Source of the DNA: an uncultured beta proteobacterium
GTDB taxonomy: Bacteria > Pseudomonadota > Gammaproteobacteria > Burkholderiales > SG8-39
Assembly: GCA_963716855.1 (NCBI GenBank)
Contig: CAVQUV010000010.1
Location: 13,449-77,448 of the forward strand
DNA length: 64,000 nucleotides
Direction of reading: 5' to 3'
Position numbers and translations under genes: made by a program
Part shown: positions 6,298 through 46,322 of the stretch, in pieces
Layout: each line of letters starts with the position of its first letter
How positions within the stretch are numbered: the first letter of the stretch is position 1
Notes under the pieces: generated by a model
The model's database searches: none
The model's input: the letters and a program-made list of their open reading frames with translations, nothing else
What the model was told of the DNA's origin: nothing

Positions 6298-6384
6298 GCC
6301 GAGGTGGCGAAATTGGTAGACGCACTAGGTTCAGGTCCTAGCGGTGGCAACACTGTGGGGGTTCGAGTCCCTTCCTCGGCACCA
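6298..6384 (+). tRNA. tRNA-Leu(CAG)
   Basis: GCCGAGG/CCTCGGC acceptor stem, anticodon arm CTAGG-TTCAGGT-CCTAG, long variable arm, GTTCGAGTC T-loop, encoded CCA. Confidence 0.97.
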
Positions 6385-13055: not shown

Positions 13056-13295
13056 TCAGTTGTCGCCGCCGTGGTCGATGCTGAGGTTGACCGGGCGCGA
13101 CGGGACGACAGTGGAGATGGCGTGCTTGTACACCATCTGGGTGACGGTGTTCTTGAGCAACACGACGTATTGGTCGAACGATTCGATTTGCCCCTGGAGC
13201 TTGATTCCGTTCACGAGGTAGATGGAAACCGGAATGTGCTCCTTGCGCAGCGTGTTCAGAAACGGGTCTTGTAGCAGTTGCCCTTTGTTGCTCAT
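13056..13295 (-). CDS. hfq: RNA chaperone Hfq
   Basis: [29 protein letters not shown]. Confidence 0.98.
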
Positions 13296-27161: not shown

Positions 27162-28019
27162 TCAGTAAAGCGCGCCGGCCAGCTTCCGGCGGTACTCGCC
27201 GACCAGGTCGGGCTGGTCGGCCGCGACACCGAAAAGCGCGACCACGGTCTTGCGCGCGCGCTCCCGCCACTCGCCGCGGTCACGGCGCACGACCTCGATC
27301 AGCTCGTCGAGCGCGGCCCGAAACCGGCCTTCCGCCGCGAGGCGGTCCGCGTAGCCGAGGCGCACGTCGAGATCCTGCGGACGCGCGTCGAGGACGGCCT
27401 TGAGCGTGGCGACGTCGGGCAGGCTGCTGCCCGCGCCTACACAGCGCGACCTTCGTCGCGATCGCGGCCGCACGCTCGTCGCGCTGCTCTTCCGGTACCA
27501 CGCAAGCGCGCCTCGGCGCCGGCATAGTCGTTCCGCGCGACGAGCAGCGCGGCCAGATCGACGCGCGCAGTCGGCGTTTTCTGCGTCGAGCGACAGCGCC
27601 TCCCGCAGCAGCGCTTCCGCGGTGGATGGATCACCGCGCGCCGCTGCGGCCGCAGCCTCGCGGCGGAGGTTCTCGCTGCGCCGAAGGAACGAGCCGCTCG
27701 ATGAACCCGCGCACGCCCGATTCCGGCAGTGCGCCGGTGAATTCGTCCACGAGTTCGCCGTCGACGAAGCCCTTGACGTTCGGGATTCCGCGCACGCCGT
27801 AGCGCGTCGCGATCTCGGGACTCGCGTCGGTGTCCAGCTTGGCGAGCAGGAACCGGCCGTCGTATTCGACCGCGAGCTTCTCCAGGATCGGCTTGAGCGC
27901 GCGGCAGGGTGCACACCAGGAGCGCCCAGAAATCGACCAGGACAGGTACGGTCTTCGACCGTTCGAGGACGTCCTGCTCGAAGGAGGCGGTCGTCGTATC
28001 GAAGGAGTGCGTCGGACAT
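27162..28019 (-). pseudogene. cnoX: Thioredoxin-TPR co-chaperone CnoX/YbbN, multiply frameshifted (probably sequence error)
   Basis: Fragments across three frames: VLVDFWA / WCAPCRAL..GIPNVKGF..GALPE / EYRRKLAGALY. Confidence 0.85.
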
Positions 28020-28169
28020 GTTCGGGGATCCTCGGGTCTCGGGACGATATCAGGGCGAAAACTCGGCGATTCAACGCATGCCCCGTGCACCGCGGCGCGG
28101 TTGATCTCGGTCAAGCGCCGGGCCGCCAGCGCGACTAACGTGGAGACAAGGGAACGACCGGAGACTGCC

Positions 28170-28557
28170 ATGCTCGACACCGCCACCCTCGCCCGTTTCG
28201 GCGCCAGCGCTCGAGCGCCGCCGTACCGAGCTCGAGCAGGACATCCGGGCCAAGCTCGCCGCGGCACGCGATGTCACGGGAAGCGCAATGATTGACCAGG
28301 TGATCGAAGGCGGCGACTACGCCAACGCCGACCTGATCGCCGCTCTGGATATCGCAGAAGTGCAGCGCGACGTGGTCGAACTGCGCGAGCTCAATTCGGC
28401 GCGTGCGCGGATCGACGCCGCGACGTATGGCGCCTGCGTGGACTGCGGAGCCGACATCCCACTTGGGCGCCTGGAAGCGTATCCGGCCGCGATCCGGTGC
28501 ACCGCTTGCCAGGCGCGGGCGGAAACTCGGGCCGGCACGACTCACGCGCGGCTGTAG
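28170..28557 (+). CDS. TraR/DksA C4 zinc-finger protein, one +1 frameshift near 28206
   Basis: YGACVDCG..RLEAYP..RCTACQ; coiled-coil N-terminus restored by removing one base; GGAG SD. Confidence 0.85.
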
Positions 28558-28570
28558 CCGAGACATTCTT

Positions 28571-28602
28571 AGAAAAGAAAAGCCCCCGGCATCGCCGGGG
28601 GC
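28571..28602 (-). terminator. Intrinsic terminator
   Basis: GCCCCCGGC-GAT-GCCGGGGGC followed by TTTTCTTTT on minus strand. Confidence 0.85.
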
Positions 28603-28646
28603 AAAAAACTTTCACCCCAAAGGAGGAGGAAAAAGGCGAAAGCTAG
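28571..28646 (-). ncRNA. Candidate ~75-nt sRNA with anti-SD loop
   Basis: 12-bp stem with loop UUUCCUCCUCCUUU, then terminator; lies downstream of a sigma54 motif. Confidence 0.7.
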
Positions 28647-28655
28647 TCCTTGAAG

Positions 28656-28671
28656 AGCAGAAGGCGTGCCA
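28656..28671 (-). promoter_or_regulatory. sigma54 (-24/-12) promoter
   Basis: TGGCACGCCTTCTGCT with exact GG-N10-GC spacing. Confidence 0.7.
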
Positions 28672-28779
28672 GCTTTTGCGGGGCCTCGGTGCGTGACTTT
28701 TTTGGCACCGCCGGCCGCCCCCGCGTGAAACTGTGCACGCACACGACGCCGCGCCGTCGGCGACGGTGTCGTCAGTCGG

Positions 28780-29493
28780 TCAGAGCCCGAGGTAGGCCTG
28801 ACGCACCCGGTCGTCGGCGAGCAGCTCGGCCCCGCTCCCCTGCATCGCGATCCGCCCGTTTTCCAGCACGTAAGCCGTCTGCGCGAGCCGCAGCGACACT
28901 GCGACGTTCTGCTCCACCAGGATGATCGTCAAACCCCGCTGGTGGAGCGCCTTGATGGTGTGAAAAACTTCCTGAACGACCGTGGGCGCGAGCCCCAGCG
29001 AGGGCTCGTCGAACATGATCAGCTCCGGCTGGCCCATCAGGCAGCGCCCGATCGCGAGCATCTGCTGCTCGCCGCCCGACAGGGTCCCGGCGGCCTGGGC
29101 CTCGCGTTCCCGCAGGCGCGGGAAGAGTCCGAACACCTCCTCGAGCGTCGCTTTCATCCGCGCGCGCGCGCGCGCGAGCATGGCGCCCATCTCGAGGTTC
29201 TCCCGCACCGTGAGGGTGGGAAAGACCTGCCGTCCTTCCGCGACCTGCCCGACGCCGAGCTCGCACACCGCGTGGCTCGGCAGCCCGCCGATCTCGTGGC
29301 CGCGGTAGCGTACGGTCCCGCGCCGTGGCGTCTCGATCCCGGCGATCGTCCGGATCAGGCTCGACTTGCCCGCGCCGTTCGAGCCGACGATCGCGACGAT
29401 CGCGCCCTGGTCCGCCTCGATCGACACCCCGTCGAGCGCCTGGGCGTCGCCGTAGAAGAGGTCGAGGTCGTGAACTTCGAGGACGGCCGTCAC
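28780..29493 (-). CDS. Liv-type ABC transporter ATPase (LivF-like)
   Basis: [24 protein letters not shown]; GTG start. Confidence 0.92.
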
Positions 29494-30213
29494 AACGCTT
29501 CTTCGCCCAGATAACATTCGAGCACCGCCGGATCGCGCACCACCTCCTCCGGCGCGCCCTCGCAGATCTTCTCGCCGTGATGGAGCACCACCACGCGCGC
29601 GGCGAGCGCCATCACCGCGCGCATGACGTGCTCGATCAGCAGGATCGTGAGGCCGGTCTCGCGGTTGATGCGGCGGAAGACGCTCGACCATCTCGTCGAC
29701 CTCGGTCGGCCGCAGGCCCGCCATCACCTCGTCGAGCAGCAGCAGCCGCGGCCGCGTCGCCATCGCGCGCGCCACCTCGAGGCGCTTGCGCTCCGGAAGA
29801 GTGAGGCTCGCCGCGAGCGCACCGCCCTTGTCCTGCAAGTGCAGCAGCTCGAGCACACGGCGCGCCTCGCGCCGCGCGTCGACCACGCGTGCCGACGCGT
29901 TGAGCGCGCCGACCACGACGTTGTCGAGCACGGTCATCTGCGGGAACGGCTTCACGACCTGGAAGGTCCGGCCGATTCCGGCGCGGCAGACCTGGTGCGG
30001 AAGGAGGCCGGTGACCGCGCGTCCGGCGAGCGACACCGTACCGGCGTCGGGCGCGAACACCCCGGCGATGACATTGAAGCAGGTGGTCTTGCCCGCGCCG
30101 TTGGGTCCGATCATCGCCGCGATGGCGCCCTCCGCGACATCGAAGGAGACACCCTGCACCGCGCGCAGGCCGCGGAATGCCTTGCTGACACCGCGCACCT
30201 CGAGGAGGGCCAT
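29490..30213 (-). CDS. Liv-type ABC transporter ATPase (LivG-like), one +1 frameshift near 29682
   Basis: [17 protein letters not shown]; the LIEHVM..YLG tail is in another frame; span 724 = 3n+1. Confidence 0.88.
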
Positions 30214-30215
30214 CG

Positions 30216-31196
30216 TCACCGCCGCGCCAGACCGAGCCGCCGCGCGATCGTCGGCCAGATCCCGTGGGGGAGGAACATCACCACCACCAGCAGGCACAGG
30301 CCGTAGAACACCTGCTTCACGCCCGGGATCTCCAGGCCGGCGAGCGCCATCAGCTCGGTGATCCCGTCGGCCAGGATGGTGAGCACCGCCGCGCCGAGGA
30401 TCGGCCCGAAGAGCGTGCCGAGGCCGCCGATGATCGGACCGAGGATGATCTCGATCGAGCGGCTGATGTGGAAGATCTGCTCGGGGAAGAGGTTGTTGTA
30501 GTAGAACGCGAAGAACACGCCGGAGAGCGCGGTCATCGCGGCGCTGATCACCACCGCGAGCATCTTCCAGCGGAAGGTGTTGATCCCGAGCGCCTGCGCG
30601 GCCTCCTCGTTCTCGCGGATCGCCTGCCAGTAGTAGCCGGCGCGACTGCGCAAGAGCCAGGCGCAGAGGGCGAAGGCCGCGGCCGTGAGCGCCAGCATGA
30701 CGTAATAGAACATGCGCGGCGTGCCGCGGAGATCGAGGAGATCCCACGCCTCGCGCTGCTCGACCTTGATGAACAGCCCGCCCGGCCCGCCGAGCCACTG
30801 GATGTGGTCGAAGCCGATGCGGGTGAACTCGGCAAACGCGATCGTGAGGAGCGCGAAGTACACTCCCGAGATGCCGAACCGGAACGCGAGGAACCCGATC
30901 ACCGCACCGGCCGCCACGCATACGGCGATCGCGAGCCAGATGCCCGCCCACGGCCCGATGCCGAAGTGAAAGAAGAGCCCCGCCGCCGCATAGGCCCCCA
31001 GACCTACGTACAGCGAGTGCCCGAGCGAGAGCTGTCCGGCGAAGCCCATCATCACGTTCCACGCCTGGCCGGTGAAAGCGAAGAAGAGGATCAGCGTCGC
31101 GACCGACAGGACGTAACTGCCCGCCACCCACGGCAGCGCGACCAGCACGGCGCCGAGCAGTGCGAGCAGGATCGCCGCGCGACGCTCCGGGCTCAC
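30216..31196 (-). CDS. Liv-type ABC permease (LivM-like)
   Basis: GFAGQLSLGH, AIRENEEAAQALGI, IIGGLGT. Confidence 0.92.
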   Translation of the reverse strand: MSPERRAAILLALLGAVLVALPWVAGSYVLSVATLILFFAFTGQAWNVMMGFAGQLSLGHSLYVGLGAYAAAGLFFHFGIGPWAGIWLAIAVCVAAGAVIGFLAFRFGISGVYFALLTIAFAEFTRIGFDHIQWLGGPGGLFIKVEQREAWDLLDLRGTPRMFYYVMLALTAAAFALCAWLLRSRAGYYWQAIRENEEAAQALGINTFRWKMLAVVISAAMTALSGVFFAFYYNNLFPEQIFHISRSIEIILGPIIGGLGTLFGPILGAAVLTILADGITELMALAGLEIPGVKQVFYGLCLLVVVMFLPHGIWPTIARRLGLARR

Positions 31197-31329
31197 GTTC
31201 GCTTGCCCAACAGCCCCTGCGGCCGGCGCAAACGGCCGGCCGCGCTGCTTCGCACCCGCGCGCGGCCTGACAAATCGTCGCTCCCTCGATCGCGCCTCAT
31301 GTCCGTTTACCCAACAGCCCTTGCGGACG
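31193..31329 (-). repeat. Duplicated 33-nt 3' end of the livH-like gene flanking a 71-nt spacer
   Basis: 31297-31329 and 31193-31225 both encode RPQGLLGKRT*; six differences, all synonymous. Confidence 0.9.
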
Positions 31330-32166
31330 GAAGAGGAGCACGAGGATCAGCAACGCGAAGCTGAACATGCTCTTCGCCGACGGCACGATGAGCAACCCCG
31401 CCAGCGCCTCGGAGACGCCGATCAGCACGCCGCCGAGGAGCGCGCCCGGCATCGAACCGAGCCCGCCGACGATCACGATGACGAACGCGAGCAGCGTGTA
31501 CGCCGGTCCGAGCACCGGGGTGACGTCGACGAGCAGGATCATCATGCAGCCCGCGACCGCAACGCAGGCCGATCCGACGCCGAAGGTGAGCGCGTAGAGC
31601 CGTTTCACGTTCAGCCCGACCACCTGGGCGCCCAGGTGGTTGTCGGCGCAGGCGCGGATCGCCTTCCCGACCAGGGTCAGCCGGAAGAAGGCGAACAGGG
31701 CTGCGCTGGTCGCGACCGCCATGCCCGCGGCGAGCAGGCGCGCCTTGTCGACGAGGATCGGGCCGATCGCGTAGGACTCGAGCTGGTAGTCCACCTGCAC
31801 GCTCCGCGCGTCCGGCCCGAAGATCATCAGAAGCGCGTTGACCATGATCAGGGCGACCGCCACGAGGAGCATGAACTGCGAGTGCTCCGGCCGGGTGATG
31901 AACGGGTTGATCAAAGAGGACTGCAGCGCGTAGCCGAAGGCGAAGAACGCCGCCGCCACCGGCACCACCGCGAGCAGCGGATCGAGCCCAAGCGTGCCGA
32001 ACAAGAGGACCGCCGCGTACATCGCGATCGTCATCATTTCGCCGTGCGCGAAGTTCACGACCCGCACGACACCGAAGATCACCGACAGCCCGAGCGCCAT
32101 CAGTCCGTAGACGAGGCCGGTGAGCAGCCCCGCGATCACGACGTTGACGATCAGGTCAGGCGTCAT
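31297..32166 (-). CDS. Liv-type ABC permease (LivH-like)
   Basis: GLSVIFGV..VNFAHGE, GGLGSMPG, RPQGLLG. Confidence 0.93.
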   Translation of the reverse strand: MTPDLIVNVVIAGLLTGLVYGLMALGLSVIFGVVRVVNFAHGEMMTIAMYAAVLLFGTLGLDPLLAVVPVAAAFFAFGYALQSSLINPFITRPEHSQFMLLVAVALIMVNALLMIFGPDARSVQVDYQLESYAIGPILVDKARLLAAGMAVATSAALFAFFRLTLVGKAIRACADNHLGAQVVGLNVKRLYALTFGVGSACVAVAGCMMILLVDVTPVLGPAYTLLAFVIVIVGGLGSMPGALLGGVLIGVSEALAGLLIVPSAKSMFSFALLILVLLFRPQGLLGKRT

Positions 32167-32171
32167 GGCGG

Positions 32172-32198
32172 AAAAAAAGGCCGGCTCGAGCCGGCCTT
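32172..32198 (-). terminator. Intrinsic terminator or stabilising hairpin between binding-protein gene and permease
   Basis: AAGGCCGGC-TCGA-GCCGGCCTT followed by a T-run on minus strand. Confidence 0.75.
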
Positions 32199-32214
32199 CC
32201 TCCGGTTGGTCGGC

Positions 32215-33465
32215 CTATGCCGCGTAGCCCGGTACGGGGAACACCGGCTTCGCCGTGGCGGCGGAGGTCGGCAGGACCACCGTCGGCGTGAGGTTCAGGT
32301 TCTGAACGCACGCGGAGCCGATCCCTTCGACCTGCCCCTTCGCGTTGAACTTGATCGGCGCGCCGAGCGTCATCTTGCTCTTGATGTCGGTCTGCCGGAT
32401 GGCCTCGGCGAGGACCTTCGGGTCGGTCGACTTGGCGCGCTTGTACGCATCGGCGGCGATGAGCACCGCCTCGAAGGTGAACCCCACGTTCAGGCCGTGG
32501 AAGACGAGCTTGTCCTTCGGGTTCTGCTTCAGGAACGCCTTTTCGACGACCTTGGTGAGCGGCGCGGTGGGGTCGTACCACGGCACGTTTGAGATGCAGT
32601 GCTCGGAGAGCTTGCCCAGCGTCTTGAAGAACTGCTCCTCGTACATGCCCGGCGATCCGGGACTGATCACGCCCATCGGGTTCCAGCGCTGCTTCACCAT
32701 CTCGCGGCGCAGGATGATCGAGTCCTGCAGCCGGCACACGAGCAGAAGGAAATCGGCCTTTGACGCCTTCGCCTTCGACACCTCGACCGTGAGGTCCTTG
32801 GCGGCCGGATCGTAGGAGATCGTGTCGACGATCTTGAACGGCAGCTGCGTCTGGCGCGGCAGGATGGCGCCGATGCCCTTGGTCATCGCCTGACCGAAGG
32901 TGTCGTTGACGTGCATGTACACGGCGGTGCGCGGCACCGTGTTGGTCGACTGGAACAGGTCGCCGATCAGGACCAGCCCGTTGCGCACGATGTCGATCGC
33001 CGTCTGGAAGTTGCGGAACACGTACCTGTAGCCCTGCTCGGTGATCTGCGGCGCGGCGGCGATGTTGATGACGAACGGTACCCCGCGCTGCTCGGCCACC
33101 TGCGCGATCGCGGCGGCCGCACCGGAGTCGAACGGCCCGACCAGCACGTTCGCACCTTCCTGGATGAGGCGTTCGGCGCGCGTGCGCGCGACGTCGATGT
33201 TGGTCTCGGTGTCGGCGTTCATGAGCTCCACGTCGACGCCGAGCATCTCCTTGATCACGCCCGGGGCGAGGTCCGCGCCCTTCTGGCACGACTGCCCGAT
33301 GAAGCCCTGGAAGCCCGACCGCGGGAGCAGCACCCCGACCTTGAGCCGCGTCGCCTGCGCGCGAACGATGGCCGGAAAGCCGAGCGTCGAGAGCGCAGCC
33401 GCGGCGCCGGCGGCTTGCACGACGCGGCGCCGAATCGGCGAGCGCGGGTTCGATCCGTTATTCAT
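32215..33465 (-). CDS. Liv-type ABC substrate-binding protein with Tat-like signal
   Basis: IRRRVVQ..FPAIVRAQ signal, LKVGVLLPRSG, periplasmic type-1 fold features. Confidence 0.9.
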   Translation of the reverse strand: MNNGSNPRSPIRRRVVQAAGAAAALSTLGFPAIVRAQATRLKVGVLLPRSGFQGFIGQSCQKGADLAPGVIKEMLGVDVELMNADTETNIDVARTRAERLIQEGANVLVGPFDSGAAAAIAQVAEQRGVPFVINIAAAPQITEQGYRYVFRNFQTAIDIVRNGLVLIGDLFQSTNTVPRTAVYMHVNDTFGQAMTKGIGAILPRQTQLPFKIVDTISYDPAAKDLTVEVSKAKASKADFLLLVCRLQDSIILRREMVKQRWNPMGVISPGSPGMYEEQFFKTLGKLSEHCISNVPWYDPTAPLTKVVEKAFLKQNPKDKLVFHGLNVGFTFEAVLIAADAYKRAKSTDPKVLAEAIRQTDIKSKMTLGAPIKFNAKGQVEGIGSACVQNLNLTPTVVLPTSAATAKPVFPVPGYAA

Positions 33466-33604
33466 GTTCCTCCTCCCTGAAAGCCGTCATTTCCTGCCCC
33501 ACGGGCAGACCGGGCGGAATTGTTAGCCGCGGGCGGGTTTTCCGCAAGCCCGACCGCGCTGCGCCGATGCGCCCTCGACGCTGCGCTCTGCCTATAATCA
33601 TGCG

Positions 33605-34201
33605 ATGGACTGGTTGCACGAGATCGCGCTCGCCGCGGGGCTCGCGTGGGCGAGCGGGATCCGCCTCTACGCCGCGCTGCTCATCGCGGGCGCGCTCGCG
33701 CATTTCGGCTGGCTCGAGCTGCCGCCGGCGCTCGAGGTGCTGAAGCACCCGCTCGTCATCGGCGCAGCGGGGGTGATGGCGCTTGGCGAGTTCCTGGCGG
33801 ACAAGGTGCCCGCGTTCGACAGCGCGTGGGACGCGGTTCACACCTTCATCCGCGTGCCCGCCGGGGCGTTCCTCGCGGCCGCCGCACTCGGGCAAGCCGA
33901 TCCGGTGTGGATCGCGGTCGCGGCGATCCTGGGCGGCGCGATCGCCTCCGGCACGCACCTGACGAAAGCCGGCGCGCGCGCGCTGATCAATGCATCGCCC
34001 GAGCCGTTCTCGAACTGGACCGCGTCGGTGGGGGAGGACCTGCTGGTGCCGGCCGGACTGTTCGCCGCGATCAAGCTGCCCGTGCTGTTTCTCGGGGCGC
34101 TCGCGGTGTTCCTGGTCGGGGCCGTCTGGCTGCTGCCGAAGCTCTTCCGCGCGGCCGCGCGGACCTTCCGACGCGCCGGCGGGGAGCCGATGACGCGGTA
34201 G
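33605..34201 (+). CDS. DUF4126 membrane protein
   Basis: WASGIRLYA, EFLADKVP..DSAWD, SPEPFSNW..S..ED. Confidence 0.85.
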   Translation: MDWLHEIALAAGLAWASGIRLYAALLIAGALAHFGWLELPPALEVLKHPLVIGAAGVMALGEFLADKVPAFDSAWDAVHTFIRVPAGAFLAAAALGQADPVWIAVAAILGGAIASGTHLTKAGARALINASPEPFSNWTASVGEDLLVPAGLFAAIKLPVLFLGALAVFLVGAVWLLPKLFRAAARTFRRAGGEPMTR

Positions 34202-45953: not shown

Positions 45954-46322
45954 ATGTCTGAAGTCGGACCCATGTTGACGCACATGCCCGCCGCGAACAC
46001 GGCGGGCCTCGTGCAGGATTTCAATCCGTACCTGCAGGCGTTCCGCACGGCGCGCCGCAGCGAAGCGCCCGGCAAGGGACAGATCTACAACCCGCCCGAG
46101 CGCGAGCTGATCGTGTGGCAGACGCGCCCCGCGCCGCCGACCGAGTTCGAGCAATCGCTCGCCGCCGCGCTGGAGCAGATCTTCGCGCAGCGCATCTACG
46201 AGCTCCCCGACATCGTCGCGGCGCTCAACCGCGACGGCTTGCGCTCGCGCCAGGGAGAGACCTGGACCGAGCAGAACTTCGTCGCCACCTTCCGCGAGCT
46301 CGGCGCGCTCGCTTTCGGCTGA
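45954..46322 (+). CDS. Small protein with recombinase-like HTH C-terminus, function unknown
   Basis: AAGGAGG SD; PTEFEQSLAAALEQIF..L..IVAALN..G..WTEQNF. Confidence 0.8.
   Translation: MSEVGPMLTHMPAANTAGLVQDFNPYLQAFRTARRSEAPGKGQIYNPPERELIVWQTRPAPPTEFEQSLAAALEQIFAQRIYELPDIVAALNRDGLRSRQGETWTEQNFVATFRELGALAFG

Follow-up and report, generated by a model that had tools for sequence, protein, structure and literature searches.

Does a short AT-rich unit on the minus strand of this DNA encode a small RNA (sRNA), and if it does, how would the RNA be switched on and what would it pair with? The unit lies in the 64-kb window (the whole stretch that was analysed, from the genome of an uncultured bacterium of the order Burkholderiales, here called G000; positions are those of the window unless a contig is named), and a first-pass annotation had read it as a sigma-54-dependent sRNA presenting an anti-Shine-Dalgarno (anti-SD) loop. 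The core of that proposal, a stand-alone sRNA gene of sigma-54 type with an anti-SD loop, holds on the sequence (conservation, absence from Rfam, and rpoN, enhancer-binding proteins (EBPs) and hfq in the genome), and the annotation's interpretation as a whole is partly supported. The locus is in all likelihood a genuine, conserved non-coding gene that has a sigma-54 promoter, and very probably a previously undescribed sRNA gene of an uncultured soil and freshwater group of Burkholderiales. Most plausibly, the RNA is built to pair with ribosome-binding sites (RBSs) and has nutrient-uptake genes as its targets. We think it rather probable that the locus is a stand-alone gene for a ~75-nt, trans-acting anti-SD sRNA, which is driven by sigma-54 and masks extended GGAGGAGG Shine-Dalgarno sequences (SDs).

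Promoter, structure and conservation of the gene

The elements listed in the first-pass annotation, namely a -24/-12 promoter, a transcription start (+1) near 28645, a 12-bp stem, a U linker and a terminator of 9 GC pairs ending in a U tail, match the minus-strand sequence (Table 1). By our own score, the promoter reaches 10.5 of 11 against the sigma-54 pattern TGGCAC-N5-TTGCW, with GG and GC exactly 10 nt apart. The +1 at ~28645 was placed from the sigma-54 -24/-12 geometry, the second G of the GG being taken as -24, and this predicted start lies 1-3 nt ahead of the stem of hairpin 1. The motif TGGCAC-N5-YTGCW has one match in the window as compared to 0.08 expected, and at least one match was found in 8 of 100 shuffles. 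Among the homologous loci, GG-N10-GC with its GG 26-29 nt 5' of the hairpin core was found in 30/30 of those first fetched and in 37/37 distinct loci, and the promoter was absent from both queries, i.e., the covariance model and the exact-pattern scan. The bases between and around the -24/-12 elements vary, giving 26 different promoter 16-mers among the 37 loci, and the remotest genera are the nearest to the textbook consensus TGGCAC-N5-TTGCT.

The machinery for such a promoter is encoded in G000 (5.69 Mb in 33 contigs, 94.7% complete), which carries two copies of rpoN (Sigma54_DBD genes) and eight strong EBPs (Sigma54_activat). Among the latter are a true NtrC (C26:64718-66136), a GlrR-like protein and one encoded next to PilS; the PilS-PilR pair is located at C19:108258-111406 (PilR at C19:108258-109616). 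The hfq gene is ~15 kb from the sRNA, inside the same window. On another contig, many GGGCAC-N5-TTGCT-type sites (G000:C14:194000-285000) stand beside the second rpoN (C14:256516) and an EBP gene (C14:247001-248440), and this dense run is possibly a separate rpoN2 regulon.

The two-hairpin structure was returned by RNAfold at -34.7 kcal/mol, as compared to -23.5 +/- 2.8 kcal/mol for shuffled sequences (z = -4.05; none of 200 shuffles equal). The unit had been described as AT-rich and free of open reading frames (ORFs), and both descriptions were borne out: its G+C content is 52% against 69.4% for the window, within the lowest 0.5% of 75-nt windows, and the ORFs that overlap the predicted transcript either start upstream of the promoter or cross the terminator, and the flanks of the unit are not conserved. 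The terminator scan of 28000-29200 found one site, the sRNA terminator, but shuffles average 1.0 and the count is not above chance; the significance of the locus comes from its conservation and not from this count. The plus-strand side of the terminator hairpin runs into AAAAAAC, so that the terminator acts for the minus strand only. Features typical of Hfq-type sRNAs, namely a U-rich single strand, a rho-independent terminator and a long U tail, are present in the sequence.

A BLASTN search with a 141-nt query found the locus in 10 of 41 relatives (5/5 of the same genus, 9/24 of the family, 0/16 of other families of the order). The covariance model R1, which was built from 11 sequences and covers the RNA only, from 8 nt before the conserved core, has matches in 43 of 151 family genomes and 12 of 34 genera, and in 23 of the 102 genomes that are at least 90% complete. 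The RNA is mostly single-copy, while three copies were found in G013 (C53, C206, C160) and two in G061 (C99, C16); these two multi-copy genomes belong to one genus, whose sRNA promoters lack the GTGA palindrome described below. The exact-pattern scan, run on one genome for each of 185,579 species, gave 35 loci, of which 30 are titled Burkholderiales, Betaproteobacteria or beta proteobacterium metagenome-assembled genomes (MAGs); the other five are co-assembly bins (Enterobacteriaceae, 2; Phycisphaeraceae, 1; bacterium, 1; and one further such bin). All carriers are uncultured MAG lineages. The pooled searches yielded 37 distinct sequences including L027 from the unpublished genome G071 (without it, the counts read 36), and the promoter, stem and loop, whose conservation in relatives the first-pass annotation had made decisive, are kept in 37/37 of them, over ~12 genera.

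In the homolog comparison that the annotation had called for, the TCCTCC of the loop was invariant in the first alignment (11 sequences). Hairpin 1 exists in just 10 variants among the 37 loci, mostly differing in loop length; of its 11 modelled pairs (the covariance model omits the basal A-U pair), 8 never vary and 2 vary on one side yet stay paired (U-A to U-G; G-U to A-U). Pairing is kept in 98.5% of the cells of hairpin 1 over the 37 sequences, and at each of its three variable inner positions. The terminator has 32 distinct stems and shows changes on both sides, i.e., compensatory ones, in 9/9 pairs, with 77.5% of cells paired in the model-fitted alignment. The covariation score of the whole structure was 0.320 as compared to 0.137 for shuffles (0/500 reached it) and to 0.18 or less for slid partners, a comparison made on an alignment that was fitted to the tested structure and is hence biased in its favour. 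An alignment-free count agrees: a strict test for a hairpin followed by a run of T is passed by 35/37 loci, while the tails of the remaining two are interrupted (CTCTTCTTTT). Sequence comparison is what establishes the gene, the type of its promoter, its structure and its terminator.

Table 1. Positions of the sRNA locus and of the features related to it in the window.
Feature	Position	Strand	Basis or remark
Predicted sRNA, ~75 nt	28571..28645	-	placed +1 to end of U tail; fold, covariance-model matches
Sigma-54 promoter TGGCACGCCTTCTGCT	28656..28671	-	GG at 28670/28669 (-24), GC at 28658/28657 (-12)
Hairpin 1, 12-bp stem AGCUUUCGCCUU (28644-28633) / GGGGUGAAAGUU (28618-28607)	28607..28644	-	four G-U pairs
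14-nt loop UUUCCUCCUCCUUU with anti-SD CCUCCUCC	28619..28632	-	sequence and RNAfold
U-rich linker UUUU between hairpin 1 and terminator	28603-28606	-	
Intrinsic terminator GCCCCCGGC-GAU-GCCGGGGGC, 9 G-C pairs	28602-28582	-	
U tail UUUUCUUUUCU of the terminator	28581-28571	-	
Palindrome GTGCACAGTTTCAC (GTGA-N6-TCAC, 1 mismatch)	28725..28738	-	centre ~-86.5; candidate site of an activator or co-regulator
Degenerate second copy GTGCCAAAAAAGTCAC (spacer 8, not 6)	28693..28708	-	centre ~-55; read from sequence
DksA/TraR-type zinc-finger gene (traR), convergent	28288..28557	+	PF01258, E = 1e-12; NCBIfam matches below cut-off
liv-type ABC operon: Peripla_BP_6 binding protein (33465-32215), two BPD_transp_2 permeases, ABC ATPases	28780..33465	-	Pfam, NCBIfam
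AGGGAGGAGGAA, RBS of the liv-type binding-protein gene (ATG 33465-33463)	33467..33478	-	best predicted pairing partner in the window
DUF4126 gene	33605-34201		
hfq	13086..13274 (G000:C10:26534-26722)	-	PF17209, 105.8 bits; sole Hfq-family match in G000

Predicted action, targets and rival explanations

A sigma-54 promoter is tightly gated and has no basal activity without an ATPase activator. Small RNAs with an anti-SD CCUCC loop are common in Alpha- and Betaproteobacteria, and their inputs are poorly understood. The locus unites these two themes, a gated promoter and a loop able to mask the strongest RBSs of the cell. As we picture it, sigma-54 RNA polymerase would bind the TGGCAC-N5-CTGCT promoter, and an ATP-dependent EBP would open it on a signal, the upstream GTGA-N6-TCAC palindrome being the likely site of this activator or of a co-regulator. 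Transcription would start 1-3 nt before the very stable 5' hairpin and stop at the strong intrinsic terminator. The loop, showing CCUCCUCC with U runs on either side, would pair with extended SDs of the form (A)GGAGGAGG(A) and block 30S binding; Hfq probably assists, since the U-rich linker and the poly-U tail form a typical Hfq-binding module. The likely targets would be mRNAs that encode periplasmic solute-binding proteins or other components of transporters, first of all those of the adjacent liv-type operon. We infer this mode of action, and with it the activator, the regulon, expression, Hfq dependence, repression and target identity.

Within the window, the predicted pairing is strongest with the adjacent liv-type operon. 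Between the loop and the RBS of the liv-type binding-protein gene, 12 contiguous pairs can form (-21.1 kcal/mol for the loop-only duplex), the best among 31 GGAGG-led ORFs, and genome-wide this RBS is predicted to rank 14th of 4,695 candidate starts. The AGGAGG-led genes at 45954, 46334 and 49575, which had been named earlier as formal candidates for pairing, fared badly as compared to it (-11.5, -12.8 and -11.6 kcal/mol). In G000 as a whole, GGAGGAGG precedes at most 135 starts, and it is found at the start of 10/35 Peripla_BP_6 genes against ~0.3 expected from its genome frequency, with a 7-mer of it in 22/35. The strongest RBSs are concentrated here on solute-binding-protein genes. Of the 20 top candidates that were annotated, nine encode solute-binding proteins (5 Peripla_BP_6, 2 TctC, 1 DctP, 1 NMT1) and two more encode transporter membrane parts, but these 20 were chosen from the top 45 with a bias to signal peptides.

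This bias is one of several points that weigh against the proposed action. Strong SDs are to be expected anyway on genes for abundant periplasmic proteins, and binding-protein genes may have them only on account of high expression; any strong SD is a partner for an anti-SD loop. About 25 repeats resembling repetitive extragenic palindromes (REPs) inflate the counts of GGAGGAGG, and the liv RBS retains the full 8-mer in 7/15 relatives only, the rest having GAGGAG(G). The near-invariance of the stem of hairpin 1 means that there is no compensatory support for it, and the invariance of both arms exceeds what a seed in a loop needs; a protein partner could account for it. As for the promoter, the palindrome lies at -57 to -99, unusually near for a classical upstream activating sequence (UAS), and adjacency points to no activator: 0/8 strong EBP genes are on contig C10, which holds the window, and none lies near the distant loci. 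The RNA libraries do not decide the matter either. Among six RNA runs that share few words with the locus, four were examined (X13, X16, X17, X18), and the parts they leave uncovered are uninformative. In X13 and X18, cover is limited to the flanking ATPase or traR gene. The runs X16 and X17, probably one data set filed twice, gave the same 356-nt contig (depth 3.5; 96% identical, with 14 differences), which spans 28315-28670, i.e., traR and the sRNA, and ends at the -24 box. Three of the differences fall within the sRNA region, in the tail, the terminator loop and the linker, and none in hairpin 1. Strand and ends are unreadable from contigs; this contig could stem from DNA carry-over or plus-strand read-through, and it is neutral, neither for nor against the sRNA.

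The rival explanation that survives best, which we regard as unlikely, holds that the RNA acts through a protein: as a decoy or ligand, the invariant hairpin would engage an RNA-binding protein or the ribosome, in the latter case by mimicking the 3' tail of 16S rRNA (CCUCCUUU), and would serve as a general translation brake with no defined regulon. The conservation of both arms over ~12 genera, with 8/11 pairs fixed and 10 variants among 37 loci, goes beyond the needs of loop presentation and speaks for it, as does the CCUCCUUU within the loop, which we take to be the anti-SD end of 16S rRNA. In addition, relatives of the RNA in the Rfam family RF02278 inhibit growth on over-expression, according to PMC5688073. 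On the other hand, no protein-binding motif was recognised, the loop lacks GGA and the RNA is therefore not a CsrA/RsmA sponge, and the combination of loop seed, U-rich linker and terminator is the design of an Hfq-type base-pairing sRNA. General anti-SD action and a defined regulon are compatible and not mutually exclusive.

The two next explanations derive the RNA from its neighbours. The sRNA is housed in a 222-nt gap (28558-28779) between the convergent ATPase and traR genes, and beyond traR the minus strand continues with a TPR_20 protein (thioredoxin-TPR in relatives), an HNH gene and a DUF6352 gene. It is improbable, in our view, that the element is a cis-acting leader or attenuator, in which the sigma-54 promoter would drive the thioredoxin-TPR (YbbN/CnoX-like) and HNH genes that follow, with the hairpin and terminator gating read-through. 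This idea draws on the same-strand order of sRNA, thioredoxin-TPR and HNH, which was found in 16/30 loci by tblastn and in four distant genera by Pfam, and on the short distance from terminator to gene in loci without traR (~15-130 nt, estimated from coordinates). At five loci from distant genera, the RNA has a divergent DUF4126 gene on one side and a thioredoxin-TPR gene of its own strand on the other, and this is also the backbone of the window when the liv operon and traR are set aside. But an opposite-strand traR intervenes between the RNA and the thioredoxin-TPR gene in 7/30 loci, including this window, with the RNA unchanged, and the terminator is strong at every locus. The 32 terminator stems, as read from their sequences, vary so much in the 5' arm that a conserved anti-terminator pairing with the invariant hairpin is impossible, and we know of no attenuator design with an anti-SD loop upstream of the terminator. 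The loci named with a traR insertion are the window itself (28288-28557), L015, L017, L021, L022, L024, L032 and L037.

Less probable still is that the locus is only the 3' end of the liv-type operon, i.e., its 3' untranslated region (UTR) with the operon terminator, from which an sRNA would arise by processing while the sigma-54 motif does not work. The operon ends 108 nt before the -24 element and, in the terminator scan, has no terminator of its own, so that the liv mRNA would end at the sRNA terminator; such an mRNA would combine AGGGAGGAGGAA at the 5' RBS with UUCCUCCUCCUU in the 3' end. An ATPase gene ends 75-175 nt upstream of the sRNA in 22/30 loci (21 found by regular expression, and L022, ending RRAYLGL*, added by eye), and 3'-UTR sRNAs tied to sigma-54 regulons do exist, e.g., GlnZ (PMC9731577). 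Against this, the 8/30 loci without a liv operon upstream keep the promoter, hairpin and terminator, and 37/37 loci preserve the -24/-12 elements as well as their spacing from the hairpin while the surrounding bases vary (26 variants). The earlier suggestion that the RNA could also be released from the 3' end of this operon may thus hold for this window, where the operon lacks a terminator, but the 3' end is not the RNA's origin because the RNA and its promoter persist where the operon is absent. A promoter of its own and the operon 3'-end route may coexist, as in the internal-promoter type of 3'-UTR sRNA. RNA, promoter and terminator are the same in all neighbour settings, which speaks against a mere 3' UTR and a cis-acting leader alike.

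That there is no RNA gene at all and the locus is conserved only as DNA, e.g., as a protein-binding site or repeat, has a nearly negligible probability: G000 does have a REP-like repeat containing CCCCTCCTC/GAGGAGGGG, but the locus is unrelated to it, no copy of the repeat lies on this contig, the locus is single-copy in most genomes, and its layout is directional, with promoter, hairpin, compensating terminator and U tail on one strand only. The palindromic repeat itself (ACCACCCCGG...CCACCCCTCCTC-N1-4-GAGGAGGGG) occurs at ~25 places in G000, e.g., C12:49101, C20:95646, C20:95691 and C32:75818, and none of them is on C10. Several copies abut a start codon, the SD of which comes from the repeat and is paired with an anti-SD farther upstream in it.

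Upstream palindrome and candidate activators

What could activate the sRNA gene? A GTGA-N6-TCAC palindrome with at most one mismatch was found upstream of 30/37 loci as compared to 1.2 in shuffles, and a perfect one in 15/37 (0.04 in shuffles). Its centres at -57.5, -68.5, -78.5, -86.5 and -99.5 correspond to one helix face. Where the window has the degenerate second copy, G004 (L013) has a perfect GTGAACAAAGTCAC. At L019 (G151), a ~75-bp tandem duplication upstream of the sRNA takes in the sigma-54 promoter together with the palindrome, and also the initial 10 nt of the sRNA.

The palindrome together with a sigma-54 promoter was searched in 41 genomes, which gave 12 matches in 10 genomes, all of this family, and none in the reversed control. 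Two of the 12 are sRNA loci, and six precede a prepilin (N_methyl) gene, in G000-G003 and G017. Counting only the prepilin loci with a recognisable promoter, the palindrome is at exactly -50.5 in 6/7 sRNA-carrying genomes (G000, G004, G044, G089, G019 and G051, and not G013) and in 0/16 genomes without the sRNA; four further prepilin loci of such genomes had no recognisable promoter, and a match with one mismatch, at -41.5, was seen in one. In the genus of G013, the sRNA promoters likewise lack the palindrome. The exception is G017, with a palindrome at the prepilin promoter and none at the sRNA promoter. As the co-occurrence of palindrome and sRNA is seen among closely related genera, it is a consistent pattern and not an independent test.

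The prepilin gene (G000 C9:72754-73413, minus strand, and L174-L203) is preceded at 40-75 nt by a sigma-54 promoter in most of the family's genera, and the family-wide UAS of this promoter is a paired TGTC-N8-GACA located farther upstream. By a reading of coordinates, the prepilin gene is 7-20 kb from the orthologue of the EBP L114 in 29 genomes besides G000, and L114 in G000 (C9:91895-93388) adjoins a secretin (Secretin_N_2) gene and an AAA_22 gene. Judging from these arrangements, the GTGA palindrome would be the site either of a second EBP or of a co-regulator.

Other routes to the activator were tried as well. The phyletic profile, drawn up for the EBP L114 only, does not discriminate, its orthologue being present in 150/151 family genomes; moreover, the sRNA-carrying genera are those closest to G000, so any phyletic profile is confounded. 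An NtrC-type site was discarded, the sRNA palindrome being unlike those upstream of two sigma-54 promoters of G000. GlrR-type sites have the consensus TGTC-N10-GACA, which the palindrome does not match either and which occurs upstream of the sRNA at the level of shuffles (3/37 vs 2.8). The prepilin motif TGTC-N8-GACA with at most one mismatch is present in 14/37 sRNA upstream regions as compared to 2.7 in shuffles; in genus g1 it overlaps the ATPase stop codon, and the copies of the distant genera fall on TTGACA-like boxes close to the divergent DUF4126 gene. Two genera (L022, L024, L034 and L061) have TGCACC/GGTGCA hexamers at -117 to -202 instead of the GTGA palindrome. These resemble the NtrC-like sites at C32:84153 and C5:344194 of G000, which lie ahead of Peripla_BP_6 genes, and the swap gives a weak hint that the sRNA promoter was rewired.

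A joint reading of these observations is tentative and, in our own estimate, rather doubtful. It would make the RNA a clade-specific sigma-54 riboregulator derived from RF02278 by a swap of promoter and stem. The shared GTGA-N6-TCAC operator would tie it to the prepilin sigma-54 promoter of a conserved secretin/pilus cluster with its own EBP, so that an appendage-on signal would also shut off the synthesis of solute-binding proteins through anti-SD pairing, and one or two genera would have been rewired to NtrC-like sites.

Relation to known RNAs

When the whole window was searched against Rfam at gathering thresholds, no family reached its threshold at the sRNA locus, and the RNA is thus absent from Rfam, a result on which the first-pass annotation had made its novelty depend; the only match at gathering score in the window is a tRNA gene at 6298-6381 on the plus strand. 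A permissive search gave three weak full-length matches, anti-hemB (25.9 bits, threshold 49.5), ar14 (25.9, 58.8) and RF02278 (21.2, 50), all of which are CCUCC-loop sRNAs. The best of these sub-threshold matches, anti-hemB (RF02837; Burkholderia RNA 7, ncS04), is similar in having a CUCCUCC loop and a terminator, but its 25.9 bits are far from 49.5, and only the terminator is well aligned while the first hairpin is aligned at low posterior probability.

With regard to the promoter, the nearest known systems are the sigma-54-dependent sRNAs, including GlmY/GlmZ, Qrr1-5 and CrcZ/CrcY. To our knowledge, few sRNAs are known to depend on sigma-54, and all are from Gammaproteobacteria or Campylobacter. 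They serve as post-transcriptional arms of EBP regulons for amino-sugar synthesis, quorum sensing, catabolite repression and nitrogen, and the gene of the activator often adjoins that of the sRNA, unlike at the locus studied here, which has no EBP gene near it. NrsZ and GlnZ are also RpoN-dependent, and GlnZ represses the ABC amino-acid transporter glnP, according to PMC9731577. The sRNA described here is like these RNAs, GlmY/GlmZ, Qrr1-5, CrcZ/CrcY, NrsZ and GlnZ, in that its output would be tied to RpoN and an EBP. It differs from them in sequence and structure, and none of their families matches the locus in Rfam; they use other seeds or act as protein sponges, and all are from Gammaproteobacteria.

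With regard to the loop, the cuckoo RNAs of Alphaproteobacteria (ar14, RF02344; NfeR1, CcsR1-4) likewise carry an anti-SD CCUCCUCC(C) in a hairpin loop and are thought to repress translation by pairing with RBSs (PMC4615179). The same paper defines them by 2-4 adjacent hairpins, each with CCUCCUCCC, and by highly variable stems, in Rhizobiales and Rhodobacterales, and assigns RpoHI/HII promoters, not sigma-54 ones, to the RSs0680 cuckoo members. The RNA studied here has a single anti-SD hairpin followed by a terminator, an invariant stem and a place in Burkholderiales, and its 25.9 bits fall short of 58.8. NcS25 of B. cenocepacia, described in PMC10117139, is an 84-nt porin repressor with a 7-nt anti-SD seed and a terminator in common with a convergent gene. 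According to its authors, ncS25 has no -12/-24 motif upstream and is expressed constitutively (PMC10117139); it was rejected as a match for our sRNA on account of the motif, and of a different sequence and context. A literature search, with most subscription journals outside its reach, found no sigma-54-dependent CCUCC-loop sRNA in Betaproteobacteria.

The closest comparison is with the double-hairpin RNAs of RF02278 (ncS03, ncS05, NcS27, ncS62), which are 57-92 nt long, consist of one hairpin and a terminator, show CCUCCUCC in the first loop and belong to Burkholderiales. In PMC5688073 and PMC10987360, the CU-rich-loop sRNAs RF02278/NcS27 of Burkholderia are reported or predicted to cover the RBSs of genes for transport and metabolism, with reported effects on the transport of amino acids and sugars. 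RF02278 has a wide distribution in the order, with matches in 83 of 121 genomes at E <= 0.001 and in 45 over the cut-off, whereas the RNA studied here is confined to part of one family. At the locus itself, the RF02278 match of 21.2 bits had E = 0.05 in a 401-nt search and stays below the gathering score of 50. G000 has a true member, L082 (C5:364085-364146, minus strand; 67.4 bits), and a genome-wide RF02278 search of G000 reported L082 only and not the studied locus; conversely, the R1 search of G000 had a single match, the studied locus, and did not match L082. This mutual non-matching indicates two separate families. RF02278 has a second CU-rich stretch in the single-stranded 5' UGUCUCCUCC, and 30/30 of its loci start with (U/C/A)GUCUCCUC ahead of the hairpin, whereas our RNA begins at the stem and carries the loop motif alone. 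The stem sequences are unrelated. A sigma-54 motif (TGGC-N8-9-TGC) was found upstream of 0/30 RF02278 loci, L082 included, and several of them have sigma-70-like -10 boxes (TATAGT, CATAAT, GATAAT).

The RNA described here is a new family of the anti-SD double-hairpin design, separate from RF02278; control of such an RNA by sigma-54 is new, and the link to the prepilin promoter is unexpected. The 13-mer CCUCCUCCUUUGG, comprising the loop and its 3' flank, is identical in L082 and the studied sRNA. G000 therefore offers a natural comparison within one genome, between a sigma-70-type copy of RF02278 and a sigma-54-type relative with the same 13-nt loop core.

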